From the IMG/VR virus record IMGVR_UViG_2734482597_000010: a stretch of DNA of 64,000 nt. One strand, written 5' to 3'. Positions 8,029 through 14,541 of the stretch are shown here, in pieces. How positions within the stretch are numbered: position 1 is the first letter of the stretch; every line of letters starts with the position of its first letter. The DNA is from a virus. Its lineage: Duplodnaviria; Heunggongvirae; Uroviricota; Caudoviricetes. A program made the translations under genes and the position numbers. The notes under the pieces are model-generated. The model did no database searches, was not told the origin of the DNA, and saw only the letters and a program-made list of their open reading frames with translations.

Positions 8029-8775
8029 ATGAAAAATATTGCGACAGGCGACGTTCTTGAACGTATCCGCAGACTGGCCCCGTCACATGTAACCGCGCCA
8101 TTCAAGACGGTAGCGGAGTGGCGCGAGTGGCAACTTTCCGAAGGCCAGAAACGTTGTGAGGAGATCAACCGTCAGAATCGTCAGTTGCGGGTGGAAAAAA
8201 TTCTGAATCGCTCTGGCATCCAGCCATTGCACCGCAAATGCTCGTTTTCGAATTACCAGGTGCAGAACGAAGCGCAGCGATACGCGTTGAGTCAGGCGAA
8301 ATCCATCGCTGATGAACTGATGANNNNNNNNNNNNNNNNNNNNNNNNNNNNNNNNNNNNNNNNNNNNNNNNNNNNNNNNNNNNNNNNNNNNNNNNNNNNN
8401 NNNNNNNNNNNNNNNNNNNNNNNNNNNNNNNNNNNNNNNNNNNNNNNNNNNNNNNNNNNNNNNNNNNNNNNNNNNNNNNNNNNNNNNNNNNNNNNNNNNN
8501 NNNNNNNNNNNNNNNNNNNNNNNNNNNNNNNNNNNNNNNNNNNNNNNNNNNNNNNNNNNNNNNNNNNNNNNNNGGTGGTGCTGCACCAGATTGTTGATCG
8601 CCGGACAGCGTCGATGCGCAGCGTGGGGATGCTGACAAACCTGAACTATGAGGCCATGAAAACATTGCTCGGCGAGCGGATTATGGATCGCATGACCATG
8701 AACGGCGGGCGATGGGTGAATTTTAACTGGGAGAGCTGGCGTCCGAATGTCGTCCAGCCAGGAATTGAGAAGTAA
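8029..8775 (+). CDS. ydaV: YdaV DnaC-like helicase loader (interrupted by N run 8324-8573)
   Basis: 248-codon [37 protein letters not shown]...; P-gene position; central 250 nt are N. Confidence 0.8.
8324..8573. other. assembly gap (250 N) inside ydaV
   Basis: Run of N. Confidence 1.
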
Positions 8776-8797: not shown

Positions 8798-9559
8798 ATG
8801 GAGACTGTTTTTGACGCACTGAAAGCAATGGGAAAAGCCACATCCATAGAACTTGCTGCGCGACTTGATATCAGTCGTGAAGAAGTGCTGAACGAACTAT
8901 GGGAACTGAAAAAAGCTGGTTTCGTTGATAAAAGCGCGTACACCTGGCGTGTGGCTGATAACAACGTTCAGCAGGAACAGCCAATGCAGGCAGAACTGCC
9001 GGAAGAAACCACCACGGCAACTGTAGTGAAAATCTCAGAGTGCGATTTAACCGCGACGATTGAACAACGCGGACCACAAACGGCGGATGAACTGGCTACG
9101 CTGTTCGGTACAACATCCCGCAAAGTTGCTTCAACGCTGGCAATGGCAATCAGCAAAGGACGCCTGATTCGCGTAAACCAGAACAGTAAATTTCGTTACT
9201 GCATGCCGGGCGATAATTTACCAGCAGAGCCGAAAGCTGCATCGGTAGCGGAAACTGATGGTAAAGCCTTTCCTCAGCCAGCCGGTGTTGCGTTACCAGT
9301 ACAGGAAGCGGCAACACAGGAAGATATTAAAACAGAAACTGTGGCGGACATTGTGCAGTCGCTGCCATCGTTTACTGAAACGCAAGCGGATGACCTAGTT
9401 TTACCATCGCTGCATATGGCAAACCGCGAACTGCGTCGGGCGAAAAATCATGTCCAGAAGTGGGAGCGAGTCTGCGCCGCGCTGCGGGAGCTGAACAAGC
9501 ACCGGGATATTGTCCGACAGATTGTCGATTCCTCCAGTCGTATTGTGTCGGAAAAGTGA
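8798..9559 (+). CDS. ydaW: YdaW-like protein, apparently full length (K-12 copy is a truncated pseudogene)
   Basis: Start at [13 protein letters not shown]... preceded by GGGAGG RBS; 253 aa. Confidence 0.6.
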
Positions 9560-9574
9560 TTGCCGGAGGCGCTT

Positions 9575-9991
9575 ATGGCAAAAGTTTTTACACAGGAAGA
9601 GCGTGAAAAAATTAAGGAGCAGGTTGTTGAGTTGGTACGCCAGAGTGGGCGCGAGACGTTAAGGCAACTGGAGGCCAAGACAGGTGCGACAAGATATCTG
9701 ATGAGCATTCTTGCCAGAGAGTTGGTTGCCAGTGGCGATGTATACAACTCTGGCTATGGGTTATTCCCGTCTGAACAGGCTCGTAAGGATTGGAAAAACG
9801 CCCGCAAAAAACTATCCAGGGCAAAGGTGAAAAAAACGGTTGTGGTTGATCCTGACCTTATCTGGTCATTACCAGACGGAGAAATACGCCGCTATGACAG
9901 GCGTCAGAACATAATCTGTCGCGAGTGCCGGAAGAGTGAAGTTATGAAACGTGTACTGGCATTTTATCAAGGAAATCTTCGGTATTTATAG
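9575..9991 (+). CDS. hypothetical protein (138 aa, single CxxC near C-terminus)
   Basis: ORF with GGAGG RBS 5 nt upstream of ATG at 9575; no family recognised. Confidence 0.45.
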   Translation: MAKVFTQEEREKIKEQVVELVRQSGRETLRQLEAKTGATRYLMSILARELVASGDVYNSGYGLFPSEQARKDWKNARKKLSRAKVKKTVVVDPDLIWSLPDGEIRRYDRRQNIICRECRKSEVMKRVLAFYQGNLRYL

Positions 9992-10129
9992 ACGTTACTA
10001 GATCAAAGAGCATTAGTTCATATGTAAATTGACATTTTTCTGGCACAGGGGAGAGCTAGCGTGGTTGTCCGCTTTGTGCCAATAGCGGACATTGCTGGCT
10101 CATGGTATGTTAGTTTAAGGAGGCAGGTT

Positions 10130-11152
10130 ATGCCCTGTATTTCGCTGTGGTATAATAGTTGCGCAATTGATACAAGGGAGCGTTACATCGTGAAAATTGT
10201 TTTCGAGGTTAATGGAAAGAAAGTTCCACTAAAATCTTTAAAATACATAAGCAAAAAAGATCAACTCGAAGTAATGAAAAACTGGTTCTTTGAAAACTTT
10301 GAAGATCCGGCAAATGCTTGTCCGTATGAAAGTAGAGAAGGTGGCTATGCTTACATATATGGCGGGCCGTATGATGCGAGCGAAGAACTACAATCCATCT
10401 TCGGTCAATATGTTAAATCTGAGTATATTGAGGAATTAGTAGATGAATTACAAACACAATGTTTTGACTGGTCTGGAAACTCAAATAATATAGATGATTG
10501 GTACGATGATGATATCTACGACGCTGTAACGTCTTCCGGTAATCCGTATTTAAAATTCATTGATAATATCGATAAAATAAAAAAACTTGCAAAAGATAAA
10601 ACTGAACAACAGCAAAAAAACCACTTGCTTAGTTTGCTCTACACGAATGTTATTACAGCTTTGGAAACGCTTTATGTTGAGCTATTCATTAATTCTATAG
10701 AGAAAGATGATGTCTACATAGCCAATTGTATAGAAAAAGGTAAGACTGAATTTAAAGTAAGCAAAGATATTGCTGCGTTGCCTTTCAAGGGTGAACCCAT
10801 CGAGAAAATTAGGGGAGAGCTAATCAGGTCAATCAAGGAACACTTGATCAGTGCAAGCTGGCATAGCACTAAAAAGGTAATCGACCGCTATGAAGCTACA
10901 TTCGATATAAAAGTACAAAAAGACTGTCCGATAGAAGCTATTGAATTGGCAACCCTCAATCGAAATCACTTAGTGCATCGTGGTGGAAAGGATAAAGAAG
11001 GGAACCTCGTAGTGATTACAGACCAGGATCTTGAAACGCTGATTGAAAATGCATCGAACCTGGCAATTATGCTCTACAACAGTTTAAATGTAGCAACGAA
11101 TAAAACCACCATTTTGCAACCAGATGACAAACCGTTCATTCATGAATTTTAA
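10130..11152 (+). CDS. hypothetical protein with C-terminal R-N-x-x-x-H (HEPN-like) motif; AT-rich cargo gene A
   Basis: ATG at 10130 preceded by AAGGAGG (7-nt spacer); alternative start GTG 10190. Motif RNHLVH is encoded at 10961-10978, in frame. Visibly AT-rich codon usage. No family confidently recognised. Confidence 0.6.
   Translation: MPCISLWYNSCAIDTRERYIVKIVFEVNGKKVPLKSLKYISKKDQLEVMKNWFFENFEDPANACPYESREGGYAYIYGGPYDASEELQSIFGQYVKSEYIEELVDELQTQCFDWSGNSNNIDDWYDDDIYDAVTSSGNPYLKFIDNIDKIKKLAKDKTEQQQKNHLLSLLYTNVITALETLYVELFINSIEKDDVYIANCIEKGKTEFKVSKDIAALPFKGEPIEKIRGELIRSIKEHLISASWHSTKKVIDRYEATFDIKVQKDCPIEAIELATLNRNHLVHRGGKDKEGNLVVITDQDLETLIENASNLAIMLYNSLNVATNKTTILQPDDKPFIHEF
10148..10156 (+). 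promoter_or_regulatory. candidate extended -10 promoter element TGgTATAAT
   Basis: Sequence ctgTGgTATAATag at 10148-10156; lies upstream of GTG 10190 (AAGGGAG RBS) but inside the ORF if the start is ATG 10130. Confidence 0.35.
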
Positions 11153-11167
11153 TAGCGCAGGTCATAC

Positions 11168-12169
11168 ATGGATATTCGCACACGAAAGACAAAATTTTTA
11201 GAGTCGTTAGATTCAACTGAAGTGATACGCAAAGCAGTAAGTCTCGCTATAGATTGCATTATTGATAATCATAATAGTAATGAAGATACCCCCTTAGTTA
11301 TTACCAGCTATGATGATCTCTGTAGAATCCAGGTGCTAAATTATGTACAGGAGTTTTGCGAAGCTGCATTCCCTGATATGGATGAATATTACTTTAGTCC
11401 TAACATACTTCGCATCAACGGCAAGACTAGTGAAGAAGCTTGTATTAACTTAATTAAACTCTTAAGAAGTACAAAAGGCATGCTATTCTGGTCCGATGCC
11501 CCATCGTGGTTCGCTAGCCTCCCCGACGGATTATTCCATGTTGTTAACATTGATCAAAAAATCGTTACTCGCGGCCTTAATAAGAAAAACTCTAAGCCGA
11601 CAATAATCAATAAAGATTACAGTGTAGATACACTACTATCAGAGCTATTTTTGAATGGCGCACACATGGAGCAACCCAACGTACACAACGTTTCTGAGGG
11701 AAACATGAAGTTCTATGATGAATGCCATGCTGGATTAATCAGACCAATACCCGCTCCAATAGGCGCGTCATACGATGAAGAGATCACAATTAATTCTCCA
11801 GATTGGCAAAAGCTCGCGTGTGTAGCTTTACGCCGCTATCAGTCGAAGGAATGTCATGACGGAATGCAATGGGATACAACCGATCATGGTTGGACTGATG
11901 TAATCGCGTATCCATTCGTCGAAGAAATACAATCAATGGATAATAGTGGTTATCGACAATGTTTAGTTGGGCTGGTCACAATAAACAATTCAAATGCAAA
12001 TTCTCCGTACCTATCTACCGTTTGGATACATCCATTTTATCGCAGGAGAGGGTTATTAAGTAAGTTATGGCCAAAATTACAAGAGTTATATGGAAGTAAC
12101 TTCGAAATTGAGCGACCTAATGAAAATATGAAAGCATTTCTGAAAAGTGCGAAACACGCAGATTACTAA
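11168..12169 (+). CDS. hypothetical protein, cargo gene B (333 aa; C-terminal region weakly GNAT-like)
   Basis: ORF 16 nt downstream of gene A, same strand, AT-rich; C-terminal ..VWIHPFYRRRGLLSKLWPKLQELYG.. loosely resembles acetyltransferase motif A; not a confident call. Confidence 0.55.
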   Translation: MDIRTRKTKFLESLDSTEVIRKAVSLAIDCIIDNHNSNEDTPLVITSYDDLCRIQVLNYVQEFCEAAFPDMDEYYFSPNILRINGKTSEEACINLIKLLRSTKGMLFWSDAPSWFASLPDGLFHVVNIDQKIVTRGLNKKNSKPTIINKDYSVDTLLSELFLNGAHMEQPNVHNVSEGNMKFYDECHAGLIRPIPAPIGASYDEEITINSPDWQKLACVALRRYQSKECHDGMQWDTTDHGWTDVIAYPFVEEIQSMDNSGYRQCLVGLVTINNSNANSPYLSTVWIHPFYRRRGLLSKLWPKLQELYGSNFEIERPNENMKAFLKSAKHADY

Positions 12170-12722
12170 TTTATGAATCAGTCTGTGGAGTTAGGGTTGG
12201 TGTGAACAAGTAGGGTAAGAGCCTCAACGTGATGCTATGCCGACCTGCTCCCTGAGAATTCACACAGAAGGCTGCTAGCAATGTCTGCAGATCGCTCAAA
12301 GCGGACTAAAATGTTGGCTTGTTTCTGACTTAGAGCATTTAAGGAAGTGCTGGTGGTGACTGGTTGTTGTGTTCCATTTCTACAGAATAAAATCACAGAA
12401 ACTATACCCAATAGTTGTATTGAATCACTGACGAGACAGCCTCATATTTATCAGGACTGGTGTGCGTCTAATACAGGGGGTTGTCGTGCTGGTTCTCAAA
12501 TGTGCGCTGGCTATTGCGGCTGTAATGGCAATTTATTGTCTTGCTGTTGTTCTTATGGAGCGGCTTTCTGATTGATTACATACTGGCTAGAAAAAAGGTG
12601 TTACCTTGGTTTATCTTTGTCCGGCAAGGTGCGCTCATTAATCTTAAGTAAATTTATTGCTCAAGTATTCAGATTACTTCTTATGGTTGAAGTCTCCTGT
12701 CAATGTAGAACCAATATATTTA

Positions 12723-12760
12723 CAAAAATGAGACCCGTCGGGGATAGCCCTGCCGGGTCT
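12723..12760 (-). terminator. intrinsic terminator downstream of the yeaR-like gene
   Basis: Stem AGACCCG (12731-12737) / CGGGTCT (12754-12760); on the minus strand it is followed by CATTTTTGTA. Confidence 0.5.
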
Positions 12761-12789
12761 GACTGTTAAAGCATTTTTAATATGATCAT

Positions 12790-13128
12790 CTATTTTTTGG
12801 TGCTATAGACTTTTTCGCCCGAAAAGTCTGGAGCGACCCAAAAGTTAATATTAAACTGAGCATCATCGCTTAGTTCAACACGGTGCCAGTATTGTGGTGG
12901 GCTTGTTGCAAAAGCGCCAGCATTAATGACTACTTTTATCTCCGGTTCAGTAGCATTCTCATCAGTAAAACCATAATATGTTACAGTGCCTTCCATTACG
13001 CACAACTGCCCAAAAACACCTGCTGCTGTATTATGATGTGTTAATAACGCTGAAGGTACGTTCTCTTTTGTGAAGAACGGAGTTGAGCGTTTGATTACCC
13101 AATCTTTAGGAATTCTCTTGTGTGTCAT
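12790..13128 (-). CDS. YeaR-like DUF1971 protein (112 aa)
   Basis: MTHKRIPKDWVIKRSTPFFTKENVP...VMEGTVTYYGFTDENATEPE...AGAFATSPPQYWHRVE...FNINFWVAP aligns by eye with E. coli YeaR as I recall it; GAGGAGG RBS 5 nt upstream of ATG at 13126-13128. Confidence 0.7.
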   Translation of the reverse strand: MTHKRIPKDWVIKRSTPFFTKENVPSALLTHHNTAAGVFGQLCVMEGTVTYYGFTDENATEPEIKVVINAGAFATSPPQYWHRVELSDDAQFNINFWVAPDFSGEKVYSTKK

Positions 13129-13941
13129 AACCACCTCCTCCAAAACATGCATTAAAAATGCATCTTTTGGAGGGTTATGTCAAGCTGTTATGAAACACAT
13201 AATTGATATGTTGATTAGAGGAGAAGATAGAATAAATATGGTTGTTTTTCGTATAACTATTTGTTTTACTTTTAGTTTATGCATTCTGTGTGTTAGGAAT
13301 AAGTTATTAAAGTTTAATCAAAAAATCTCGATGTAGTCCACATAGATTACTGTTACTGAACCTTATTGTGTGTATTAGTTGTGTTCTGAAATTTCAGCTT
13401 AATTATTTATGATGTATTTTTTAACGATAAATATTTTCCCAGGATACCTTTACTGTGTATATAAATAAATTATATACGCATAAATAATGTAAAGGCGTCC
13501 TTTTAGATATATCTTATCAAATGTTAATGACTTGAGTGGGAAATATGATTCCAGCAACTTATCATGTGGCTACTTTATAAAAATAATGCCCATATAAAAC
13601 AACAAGCGAAAAGGATTACGGATAAAAAAGGAGCGAGATGTGCGAACTTGTTATTTTCCATGTTTAACCACCTTAAATAATTGATGATGACGGGATGATT
13701 GCATCTGTAATGCTTTTATTGAAATGTTATGATAAAAAAGAACTTTTGCATAACATTAAAATGTAATTTATCTAATCGTTTTTAATAATAAGTGTCGTAT
13801 TTCTATCCTTGTACCAGCTATTTGATATGTAGTGTTTGTTCATGCTATGTGGGGCTTTACACCATAGCCAGTTTATTTATACTTTATTCGTCAGCCTGAA
13901 CAACTGGCATCTGCTGCGCTGCGCCATCGAGAGATTGAGAA

Positions 13942-14541
13942 ATGGCGCATATACAACTGGTCAAACAAACCTCTTCTGGTTTACTTCTCCCGGCGACGCC
14001 GGAGAGTTGCGATTTTCTGCATCAAATCAAAATAGGTGAGTGGATACACGCAGACTTTAAGCGTGTGCGTAACTACGCATTCCACAAGCGTTTTTTCAAA
14101 CTCCTGCAACTGGGATTCGATTACTGGACTCCGGTCGGTGGGGCGATCACGCCTCGCGAACGAGAACTGCTGTCTGGTTTCGTTGATTACCTGTGCGAAT
14201 CAGTTGGTCGGGAACACACGCCAGCCCTGAGTGATGCCGCAGAGCAATACCTTAACACCGTTGCGACTCGTAGAACCCGGGATACGGCGTTGCTAAAGTC
14301 GTTTGAGGCTTTCCGCGAGTGGGTAACCATTCAGGCCGGATTTTACACCGAGCATATTTATCCGGACGGTAGCCGTGGGCGTCGGGCAAAATCCATCGCT
14401 TTTGCGAATATGGACGAAGTCGAGTTTCAGCAGGTTTATAAATCTGTACTGAATGTGCTGTGGAACTGGATTCTGTTCCGTAAATTCTCCTCTCAGGAGG
14501 AAGTTGAAAATGTGGCCGCACAACTACTGGAGTTTGCGTAA
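13942..14541 (+). CDS. nin-region phage protein (199 aa), family uncertain
   Basis: ORF MAHIQLVKQTSSGLLLPATPESCDFLHQIKIGEW...; sits where lambdoid phages carry nin genes. Confidence 0.5.
   Translation: MAHIQLVKQTSSGLLLPATPESCDFLHQIKIGEWIHADFKRVRNYAFHKRFFKLLQLGFDYWTPVGGAITPRERELLSGFVDYLCESVGREHTPALSDAAEQYLNTVATRRTRDTALLKSFEAFREWVTIQAGFYTEHIYPDGSRGRRAKSIAFANMDEVEFQQVYKSVLNVLWNWILFRKFSSQEEVENVAAQLLEFA

Follow-up and report, generated by a model that had tools for sequence, protein, structure and literature searches.

Genes and features of the locus

The window analysed here is a 64,000-nucleotide stretch of Caudoviricetes DNA (IMG/VR record IMGVR_UViG_2734482597_000010). It carries two co-oriented, tightly spaced genes, here denoted A and B, and the original prediction of such a pair holds: the genes exist and lie 15 nt apart. 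The features of the locus are:

10067..10189, + strand: leader and promoter region, conserved and moving with the cassette (14 aligned copies with unrelated upstream flanks)
10067-10090: inverted repeat GTCCGCT-N10-AGCGGAC, inside the leader
10095..12280, + strand: moron, a variable insert occupying the slot that follows the DUF977 gene in Rac-type and other lambdoid prophages
10148..10156, + strand: predicted TG-extended -10 element, TGgTATAAT (sequence reading and conservation)
10174..10180, + strand: Shine-Dalgarno sequence AAGGGAG, followed after 9 nt by GTG 10190
10190..11152, + strand: gene A, DS-33A (WP_014639476.1), HEPN defence effector; 320 aa from the GTG, 100% identical to the tested DS-33A
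10265..10465, + strand: HEPN/RES-NTD1 domain of A, residues about 26-92 (PF18870 matches of homologues)
10607..11113, + strand: all-helical bundle forming the HEPN domain of A (residues ~140-308)
10961..10978, + strand: Rx4H motif R258-N-H-L-V-H263 of A, predicted catalytic (invariance and loss of defence in R258A)
11168..12169, + strand: gene B, DS-33B-type (WP_000354966.1), 333 aa, with a family-specific N-terminal domain and a C-terminal GNAT fold
11735..12166, + strand: GNAT-fold domain of B, approximately residues 190-333
12032..12034, + strand: codon for P289 of B (CCA); leucine in the experimentally tested allele

The cassette is a mobile insert in a variable prophage slot

Both genes are markedly AT-rich, as had been noted by eye. 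The GC content of A is 0.361 and that of B 0.391, compared with 0.47-0.50 in the flanking genes and 0.496 in the whole window, GC3 is 0.35 in the cassette versus 0.47-0.54 in the flanks, and only 1.1% of 2-kb windows are equally AT-rich. The dN/dS ratios (A, 0.12-0.21; B, 0.20-0.43) indicate that both genes are under purifying selection.

Comparison with other prophages placed the bounds of this mobile insert of ~2.2 kb at about 10095-12280. Two cassette-less prophages have the flanks in common with the window up to ~10094 and again from ~12280-12288. The segment common to the window and Serratia grimesii covers 10067-12240 only, at 97% identity, and the flanks differ. Genome comparison with the K-12 Rac prophage demonstrated that ydaW there directly abuts rzpR/rzoR and trkG, hence K-12 lacks the stretch that holds the cassette, in agreement with the deletion proposed earlier. 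A search of the INPHARED phage collection detected no copies of the cassette, only a 75-nt flank.

To characterize the slot itself, we took eight slots from cassette-less genomes and assigned their cargo by PADLOC and Pfam. Between the same flanks lie other cargoes, known defence systems among them: PD-T7-1 (E 7e-157), PD-T7-3 (E 3e-168), AbiH together with an IS element, and, in two slots, PDC-S15/FRG; the other occupants are an unknown 834-aa protein and, in one locus, non-prophage cargo. The moron-type position suggested for the cassette is thus upheld, and the cargo marks the lambdoid slot that follows DUF977 as a defence hotspot. In Serratia the cassette adjoins McrBC. No homologue of A standing alone was found in the DUF977 slot; such solo copies occur in other hotspots instead, in one case the P2 gpA-portal hotspot, where A adjoins an ApeA_NTD1 protein; at another site its neighbour is an AbiJ_NTD3 protein.

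The leader carries a conserved putative promoter

The cassette had been credited with its own expression signals, and alignment of its copies separated those that are conserved from those that are not. The -10 element is kept as TG-n-TA(T/C)AAT in most of the diverged copies, and the Shine-Dalgarno sequence reads AAGGGAG or AAGGAGG in diverged copies. A generic promoter and terminator scan did no better than a shuffled control (12 sites versus 13.4 expected), hence the case for the promoter is built on conservation and not on the scan. The window also contains AAGGAGG (10117-10123) followed by ATG 10130, yet this pair is not conserved: some copies have ATA or TTG in place of the ATG, and one further copy carries a frame-breaking indel. 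ATG 10130 was therefore ruled out as the start codon. Since the N-termini of the homologues line up with GTG 10190, which is also the start in the PGAP annotation (identical coordinates for the whole gene), we assign the start of A to the GTG. Thus TGgTATAAT, AAGGGAG and GTG 10190 stand as signals conserved despite unrelated flanks, whereas AAGGAGG with ATG 10130 does not. On this comparison of copies, the cassette travels as a unit of 2.2 kb that brings along a conserved putative promoter of its own.

The inverted repeat at the start of the leader was weighed as a possible RNA hairpin or terminator but discarded: a T-run is absent, and mismatches in diverged copies are uncompensated. An Rfam search of positions 9500-14200 detected no RNA families.

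Gene A encodes a HEPN protein with an N-terminal HEPN/RES-NTD1 domain

The HEPN/RES-NTD1 domain is the most conserved region of A and contains 12 invariant residues, among others W32, F33, G51, G52, G58, G59 and P60. The window protein scores 22.2 bits against PF18870, under the gathering score of 27.4, whereas all 46 homologues of A match the family at E <= 0.01 (best 1e-6). The matched region lies N-terminal to the HEPN domain, agreeing with the 2013 definition of HEPN/RES-NTD1.

The second domain has the all-alpha up-down helical bundle fold of HEPN proteins, and HEPN toxins of the HEPN-MNT class (8xdj, 5yep and 7ae2) ranked among the top matches of a structure search. All 46 homologues, down to 26% identity, keep R258 and H263, and E159 is likewise invariant. 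The Rx4-6H signature that had been read from R-N-H-L-V-H is therefore genuine, as the loss of defence in the R258A mutant confirms; its position needs correcting, for residues 258-263 lie about 60 residues before the C-terminus and not at the end of the protein. PF18735 (RiboL-PSP-HEPN) gave no match to the window protein at E <= 1, although 19 of the 46 homologues match it (best E 1e-9). The authors who described DS-33 reported an HHblits match of A to PD-T4-2_B, a RiboL-PSP-HEPN protein, at 96.1% probability (PMC13092281); the PADLOC v2 models, including PD-T4-2, gave no match to A at E <= 1. For A and B alike, PADLOC v2 and NCBIfam returned nothing useful, PHROGs only the 'unknown function' families 17908 and 16994, and profile searches against PDB sequences no relatives.

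Gene B encodes a GNAT-fold protein

The AF2 model of B (pLDDT 90.1) shows the alpha/beta fold of GNAT proteins, so that the weak acetyltransferase-like motif seen previously belongs to a genuine GNAT domain. This domain holds a motif-A-like H288-P-F-Y-R-R-R-G295; compared with the motif A consensus Q/R-x-x-G-x-G/A, R292-x-x-G295-x-L297 deviates at the last position. The window protein scores 19.9 bits against PF00583, for which the cut-off is 20.7, and 16 of 42 homologues match the family (best E 6e-6). The N-terminal domain is confined to B-like proteins, with 20 matches among 1.84 billion representatives. A degenerate P-loop, 'NGKTS', at residues about 83-87 was rejected, as the motif is not kept among homologues.

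P289, within the motif-A-like stretch, is invariant in 42/42 homologues and in 90/90 copies of the locus. Allele counts gave P289 on at least 1000 contigs and L289 on 31.

The cassette is the published defence system DS-33

Sequence comparison demonstrated that A is identical to DS-33A over 320/320 residues, and that B is identical to the tested DS-33B (WP_000354965.1) at 332/333 residues, the sole difference being P289L. Gene order and the 15-nt gap agree with the cloned DS-33 unit. DS-33, working name 'GNAT', was cloned and validated in the DefensePredictor study (PMC13092281, April 2026), and Table S6 of that study lists the A-B pair as DS-33, defensive = TRUE (DeWeirdt et al., Science 2026, PMC13092281). 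The cassette is thus an anti-phage defence system already published. The guess of a defence function was correct, as the cassette protects by 2-6 logs against T7, T3, Bas67 and Bas26 (PMC13092281). The module was not undescribed: apart from the 2026 report, its HEPN/RES-NTD1 + HEPN architecture was catalogued in 2013. The main text of the DS-33 paper contains no mechanism or discussion of the system (PMC13092281), and the cassette is mentioned neither in the domain-centric screen paper PMC13069673 nor in the P2/P4 hotspot papers.

The published assays allow the two genes to be separated. Table S7 gives -log10 EOP in two replicates (PMC13092281): wild type DS-33 scored 3.8/2.6 against T7, 3.3/2.4 against T3, 4.0/2.0 against Bas67 and 5.0/5.9 against Bas26, and the ΔGNAT construct 4.8/4.3, 3.3/3.3, 4.0/3.3 and 5.0/4.9, respectively, whereas every value for ΔHEPN and R258A fell between -0.5 and 0.8. 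With the ΔHEPN construct, in which only B is left, in its L289 allele, none of the five phages assayed was held back (PMC13092281). HEPN-dependent defence is therefore established experimentally (PMC13092281): A is necessary and sufficient for protection against T7, T3, Bas67 and Bas26, and its HEPN arginine is required. B is not required for DS-33 defence, as assayed with the L289 allele. Because the tested clone carries L289, the common P289 allele, which is that of the window, lies outside the published assay, and 'B dispensable' may describe a B already crippled at an invariant residue.

The cassette is present in 205 of 5,426 complete E. coli genomes (~4%) and so may account for a measurable share of the resistance of the species to T7-like and other phages, which is of relevance to phage therapy and to prophage-prophage competition.

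A is inherited without a conserved partner

The original prediction had taken the pair for an effector with a modulating partner, in the manner of toxin-antitoxin and abortive-infection systems. Inspection of neighbourhoods showed that A and B are strictly adjacent, with a gap of 15-18 nt, in every copy in which A is at least 85% identical, and that the two have co-diverged there with similar dS. At <=76% identity A never has B nearby (about 100 loci), and in 79 A neighbourhoods no neighbour family is common to more than 5 related loci. B, for its part, occurs alone at 86% identity in 3 loci, and at <=56% identity is never found with A. Hence the two genes do not co-occur throughout their family and are co-inherited in one shallow clade only, which argues against an effector-plus-antitoxin pair and accords with the published deletion results. 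In bacteria of many phyla A stands as a unit by itself, with no conserved partner and repeatedly in defence hotspots.

A classical toxin-antitoxin or addiction module would consist of A as a constitutively toxic HEPN RNase and B as its antitoxin, acting by type II binding or by a type VII-like modification. A two-gene operon with a HEPN gene does resemble HEPN-MNT and RnlAB. However, MG1655 pCV1-GNAT(ΔGNAT) is a viable strain, entered in Table S11 (PMC13092281), and it defends as well as wild type or slightly better, so that the supposed toxin is maintained without the supposed antitoxin; the homologues of A lack B or any other conserved neighbour; and an effector gene placed first, with a 333-aa enzyme second, is atypical for type II. 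This reading is already largely refuted, and we regard it as very improbable.

B may be an independent accessory or a modulator of A

If B is no antitoxin, it could be an independent accessory, a defence, counter-defence or host-modifying acetyltransferase that merely has the promoter and the hotspot in common with A. The solo copies of B fit this account: one (L158) follows a P4-type primase, another (L107) lies near a resolvase and the XamI restriction enzyme, and none has a conserved neighbour. So do the restriction of its N-terminal domain to B-like proteins, the persistence of DS-33 defence without B, and the DefensePredictor log-odds of 1.08 for B versus 9.45 for A (PMC13092281). In addition, hotspots often stack unrelated systems, as in the Liu-DS6 operon, where Pycsar is joined to type IV Thoeris. 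What speaks against independence is that B alone does not defend, albeit in the P289L allele, and that it forms a tight operon and co-diverges with A. We consider an independent B quite plausible, at a little under even chances.

The same operon organization would be expected if the P289 form of B were an active acetyltransferase that modulates A, acetylating A or the substrate of A and thereby damping or gating the nuclease. B would then protect the carrier prophage or cell from self-activation, as a second component that is regulatory and non-essential. Strict adjacency, co-divergence and purifying selection on B are consistent with this, and ΔGNAT outperforms wild type by 1-1.7 logs against T7 and by 0.9-1.3 logs against T3 and Bas67 in one replicate (PMC13092281). 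The HEPN-MNT systems provide a precedent for a HEPN toxin that is enzymatically modified (8xdj, 7ae2; PMC11586414). A role of B could have been missed, since the only allele assayed has P289L, a change at an invariant position in the motif predicted to bind acyl-CoA. Nevertheless, the EOP differences are ~1 log in two replicates and reversed for Bas26, diverged A is never accompanied by B, and B occurs alone in other mobile elements. We estimate the chance of such a modulator at roughly one in four; if it exists, DS-33 would be a HEPN system regulated by acetylation, or B would give its carrier prophage self-immunity.

The tight operon, the constant gap of 15-18 nt and the similar dS would be unexpected if B were without bearing on A.

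Proposed mechanism and related systems

The explanation that we favour, and consider very probable as a whole, is that the cassette is DS-33, with A as an autonomous latent HEPN effector and B as a separately mobile accessory. A would be expressed in the lysogen from the putative promoter of the cassette, as a latent HEPN ribonuclease held off until a phage-derived cue appears. The HEPN/RES-NTD1 domain, which is common to RES toxins, might serve as the sensor or regulatory module, a role we assign by inference. Once activated, A would cleave cellular or phage RNA (tRNA, rRNA or mRNA) and stop phage production, probably by abortive infection, by analogy with HepS and Tha, two prophage HEPN proteins that stand alone. 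B, presumably an acyl-CoA transferase of GNAT fold that carries an N-terminal domain of its own, appears to have joined A in one enterobacterial clade, where the two are likely co-transcribed, and would act independently or as a non-essential modulator.

To the defence already established, the present analysis adds the autonomy of A and its presence in many bacterial phyla and several distinct defence hotspots, the movement of the cassette, as a unit of 2.2 kb, together with its conserved putative promoter, and the recognition of P289 as the natural consensus of B. The uncharacterised occupants of the DUF977 slot are good candidates for new systems.

Two other HEPN defence proteins resemble A, both of them encoded by solo genes that temperate phages carry in accessory slots. 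HepS of the Salmonella Gifsy-1 prophage (PMC13043305) occupies a lambdoid prophage slot without a partner and is inactive by default; a phage structural protein activates it, upon which tRNA anticodon loops are cleaved (PMC13043305). Tha, of S. aureus prophages, is likewise partnerless (PMC11087260).

The closest characterised defence relative of the A HEPN domain, by the HHblits analysis of the DS-33 authors (coverage 0.55), is subunit B of PD-T4-2 (Vassallo et al. 2022, PMC9519451). PD-T4-2, like DS-33, is an accessory defence system of E. coli (PMC9519451), but its two genes form a separate system that was selected against T4, and the match omits the HEPN/RES-NTD1 half of A. The MAE_18760 / MAE_28990 group (Anantharaman et al. 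2013, PMC3710099) has the same HEPN/RES-NTD1 + HEPN architecture as A, for which an Abi-like function was predicted because the N-terminal domain is common to toxin effectors (PMC3710099). That description differs in being computational only and in naming a ParA/Soj ATPase as operon partner, with no GNAT neighbour reported (PMC3710099). In type VII HEPN-MNT systems, as in the cassette, a HEPN RNase gene adjoins that of an enzyme potentially modifying it covalently; the partner there is a nucleotidyltransferase, whereas here it is a GNAT protein that is unneeded for viability or defence and co-inherited in one clade only.

Published identity and defence activity of the cassette

The window is an E. 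coli lambdoid prophage of the Rac type, and the examined stretch matches, at 100% identity, the Rac prophage that strain FORC_081 carries at ttcA. The cassette consists of two genes spaced by 15 nt, both annotated in RefSeq as 'hypothetical protein'.

10190..11152, + strand: gene A, HEPN protein, 320 aa from GTG, WP_014639476.1
11168..12169, + strand, co-oriented with A: gene B, GNAT-fold protein, 333 aa, WP_000354966.1

An accession search of the supplementary tables of the 'DefensePredictor' study (DeWeirdt et al., Science 2026; PMC13092281) found the cassette itself. Table S6 lists the working ID 'GNAT' as DS-33 on contig NZ_QOWT01000046.1, 6922-8901, with WP_014639476.1 and WP_000354965.1 and defensive = TRUE (PMC13092281). 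A of the window is identical to DS-33A at 320/320 residues, and B differs from the tested DS-33B (WP_000354965.1) solely by P289L (codon P289 at 12032-12034). The cassette is therefore already known as DS-33. The original prediction had proposed an undescribed defence or addiction module; its defence function is borne out by the published assays (PMC13092281), and its novelty is not.

Table. Defence by DS-33 constructs, as -log10 EOP in two replicates (PMC13092281, Table S7)
WT: T7 3.8/2.6; T3 3.3/2.4; Bas67 4.0/2.0; Bas26 5.0/5.9; T5 0.8/0.1
ΔGNAT: T7 4.8/4.3; T3 3.3/3.3; Bas67 4.0/3.3; Bas26 5.0/4.9; T5 1.7/0.5
ΔHEPN: every value on these five phages -0.5 to 0.5
R258A: every value on these five phages -0.3 to 0.8

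The EOP values of the four constructs demonstrate that A is necessary and sufficient for defence, that R258 is essential and that B is dispensable (PMC13092281, Table S7). Compared with WT, ΔGNAT was 1-1.7 logs stronger on T7, stronger in one replicate on T3 and Bas67, and weaker in one replicate on Bas26 (PMC13092281); these differences are suggestive at most of B dampening the A-based defence. The main text of PMC13092281 does not discuss DS-33 and reports no target, trigger or abortive-infection test for it.

Position 289 of B is part of the GNAT motif-A segment, H-P-F-Y-R-R-R-G. Proline occupies it in 42/42 diverse B homologues and in 90/90 copies from the loci that were fetched. At least 1000 contigs carry the P allele, and 31 carry the L allele that was assayed. 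Judging by this conservation, B may already have been weakened in the DS-33 'wild-type' construct. The published assay firmly shows that A alone defends; as to B, it bears on the L289 allele, not on consensus B.

Gene A encodes a HEPN protein that probably acts as a latent RNase

In Pfam searches, PF18870 (HEPN/RES N-terminal domain 1) scored 22.2 bits on A of the window, below the cut-off of 27.4. We gathered 122 homologues of A and scanned 46 diverse ones against Pfam; PF18870 was matched by 46/46, and RiboL-PSP-HEPN (PF18735) by 19/46, with a best E of 1e-9.

10961-10978, + strand: R-N-H-L-V-H motif, A residues 258-263

Residues E159, W224, H225, R258, H263 and R264 show no variation down to 26% identity, and the N-terminal domain is conserved more strongly still, with 12 invariant residues. 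A had been called a HEPN effector on the strength of this motif, correctly so. The arginine of the motif is essential, as R258A loses defence (PMC13092281). A computational survey of 2013 listed the HEPN/RES-NTD1 plus HEPN architecture, exemplified by a Klebsiella protein, and predicted an Abi-like role for it (PMC3710099). Among known defence proteins, the HHblits searches of the DS-33 authors place PD-T4-2_B, a RiboL-PSP-HEPN protein, closest to A (probability 96.1, coverage 0.55; PMC13092281).

The HEPN protein with its R258 is required for defence, which works from the native promoter without the partner (PMC13092281). We consider it fairly probable that A is a latent HEPN endoribonuclease, activated by a cue and cutting RNA to halt phage production. 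A would be kept inactive, probably via the conserved HEPN/RES-NTD1 domain and its oligomeric state, until a phage-derived cue turns it on; active A would then cut tRNA, rRNA or mRNA, halting phage production. This picture is modelled on HepS, a solo HEPN protein from an accessory slot of Gifsy-1 equivalent to that of the cassette. HepS is off by default and, once a phage tail-tip protein has triggered it, cuts the anticodon loops of tRNA (PMC13043305). Tha of S. aureus prophages is similar to HepS (PMC11087260).

A and B are separable genes

We searched A-anchored loci (80 genomic, 52 viral, 3 further) for B, and B-anchored loci (46 metagenomic, 26 viral, 3 further) for A. Where A was at least 85% identical, B was always next, with a gap of 15-18 nt; where A was at most 76% identical, B was absent in all of ~100 loci, prophage contigs included. 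A was absent from all loci with B at or below 56% identity, and three loci carried B at 86% identity without A. No neighbour gene family was common to more than five (related) loci among the 79 with full-length solo A, and the same held for solo B loci. This linkage pattern across the fetched loci indicates that A and B are independently mobile genes joined in one shallow enterobacterial clade, and that A is self-contained.

An obligate toxin-antitoxin or effector-partner design is at odds with how A and B co-occur. The effector with a modulating partner originally proposed fails on the ~100 A loci lacking B and on the dispensability of B for defence; a dispensable B and a sufficient A are what the linkage analysis predicted. 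As a classical antitoxin B is essentially excluded. Against nine diverged copies, A had a dN/dS of 0.12-0.21 and B one of 0.20-0.43, and synonymous divergence of A and B was similar in each pair (e.g. 0.055/0.072, 0.116/0.105, 0.324/0.358); by these measures purifying selection acts on both genes, and within this clade they have been co-inherited.

One solo B at 86% identity directly follows a P4-type primase gene (L158:5001-5999), and another lies near a serine resolvase and a XamI restriction endonuclease (L107:1608-2606). These solo copies suggest that B does a separate job on mobile elements. B could well be an independent accessory acetyltransferase, a reading we hold tentatively; that it is a non-essential modulator of A, as the ΔGNAT differences might hint, seems unlikely. 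The N-terminal 190 residues of B are restricted to B-like proteins of ~330 aa (20 matches among 1.84 billion representatives).

A diverged B copy (L106:2634-3632) has a stop four codons short of the usual end (KSVK*ADY). In L162:4644-5606 (P0148), an in-frame deletion joins ydaV (DnaC-like) codon ~119 to gene B codon 133, taking out DUF1627, DUF977, gene A in full and the first part of B; at least nine contigs carry this decayed Rac variant.

Start codon and expression signals of gene A

We aligned the 190 nt 5' of A from 14 cassette copies with unrelated flanks. A leader of ~125 nt (10067-10189) moves together with the cassette genes and carries the following conserved signals.

10148-10156, + strand: TG-extended -10 TGgTATAAT, TACAAT in other copies
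9 nt upstream of GTG 10190, + strand: Shine-Dalgarno AAGGGAG or AAGGAGG, conserved among cassette copies
10190, + strand: start codon GTG, conserved in the 14-copy alignment

Two signal sets had been proposed; the set of GTG 10190, TGgTATAAT and AAGGGAG is conserved and the ATG 10130 set is not. ATG 10130 was rejected as the start of A: it is ATA or TTG in several copies, an indel in the Serratia copy (L010) breaks the frame between its position and the GTG, and the N-termini of A homologues line up with the GTG start. Because the GTG 10190 signals are conserved and ATG 10130 is not, the 340-aa form of A in PHROG 17908 is evidently an over-extension. A generic promoter scan performed no better than on shuffled sequence; the promoter at 10148-10156 is supported by conservation and by the published clone, which was active with the native sequence upstream of it.

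The mobile module has an inverted repeat at its left edge (GTCCGCT-N10-AGCGGAC, 10067-10090), kept in most diverged copies. Comparison of these showed mismatches without compensation and no T-run after the repeat, which may be a DNA-level site, either operator or recombination boundary.

The cassette is a mobile insert in a defence hotspot

At 0.361 (A) and 0.391 (B), the GC content of the cassette genes is below that of the replication and nin-type genes on either side (0.47-0.50) and of the window (0.496); GC3 is ~0.35 in the cassette genes versus 0.47-0.54 in the flanks, and only 1.1% of 2-kb windows are equally AT-rich. The AT-richness noted from the sequence thus holds by all three measures. 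So does the absence of this stretch from K-12 Rac, where ydaW directly precedes rzpR/rzoR and trkG. The insert spans ~10095-12280, and cassette-free prophages have both flanks in common with the window. We surveyed the slot, a variable site downstream of the DUF977 gene, in eight further lambdoid prophages of E. coli, sampled from genomes without the cassette.

Table. Other occupants of the slot
PD-T7-1, E 7e-157
PD-T7-3, E 3e-168
AbiH with an IS element
PDC-S15 / FRG-domain protein, PADLOC candidate, two prophages
834-aa protein, L219:5187-7691
314-aa protein, L216:4606-5550
285-aa protein, L090:5239-6096
187-aa protein, L090:7405-7968
BCCT transporter and DUF2254 gene, L091, one strain; the prophage seems to end here

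PD-T7-1 and PD-T7-3 are experimentally validated defence systems. With its own boundaries and alternative defence cargo, the insert occupies the moron position initially assigned to it, and this context spoke for a defence function in which A was likely to be the autonomous effector. The 834-, 314-, 285- and 187-aa proteins had no Pfam or PADLOC match; they are candidate new defence genes because the same slot elsewhere holds PD-T7-1, PD-T7-3, AbiH and PDC-S15. The remaining value of the locus lies in the consensus B allele, the trigger and target of A, and these uncharacterised occupants.

In Serratia grimesii NBRC 13537 (L010:5878-8051) the cassette lies in a chromosomal island, flanked by RadC/CbtA/DUF4942 island genes and an McrBC restriction system. 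The part in common is only 10067-12240, at 97% DNA identity, which indicates recent transfer of a 2.2-kb module between genera. In a Yersinia alsatica P2-like prophage (L012:4338-5699 (-) and L012:6001-6945), a solo A homologue (75% identity) lies between replication gene A and portal/terminase and adjoins an ApeA_NTD1-containing protein, which makes two neighbouring HEPN-type candidates in a P2 hotspot. Another solo A adjoins an AbiJ_NTD3 protein.

Within the window, a run of N (masked bases, 8300-8570) falls in the DnaC-like ydaV ORF (8029..8775). Between the cassette and the nin-type genes lies an opposite-strand DUF1971 gene (12790-13152, - strand, GC 0.41), followed by a very AT-rich 790-bp spacer (13153-13941, GC 0.305). 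No Rfam family matched in this region (12790-13941), which in other prophages is occupied by hokD. A 3.3-kb contig (JAIHTM010000277.1) binned in a 'Collinsella sp.' MAG carries a cassette 100% identical to that of E. coli and is most likely a misbinned enterobacterial contig.
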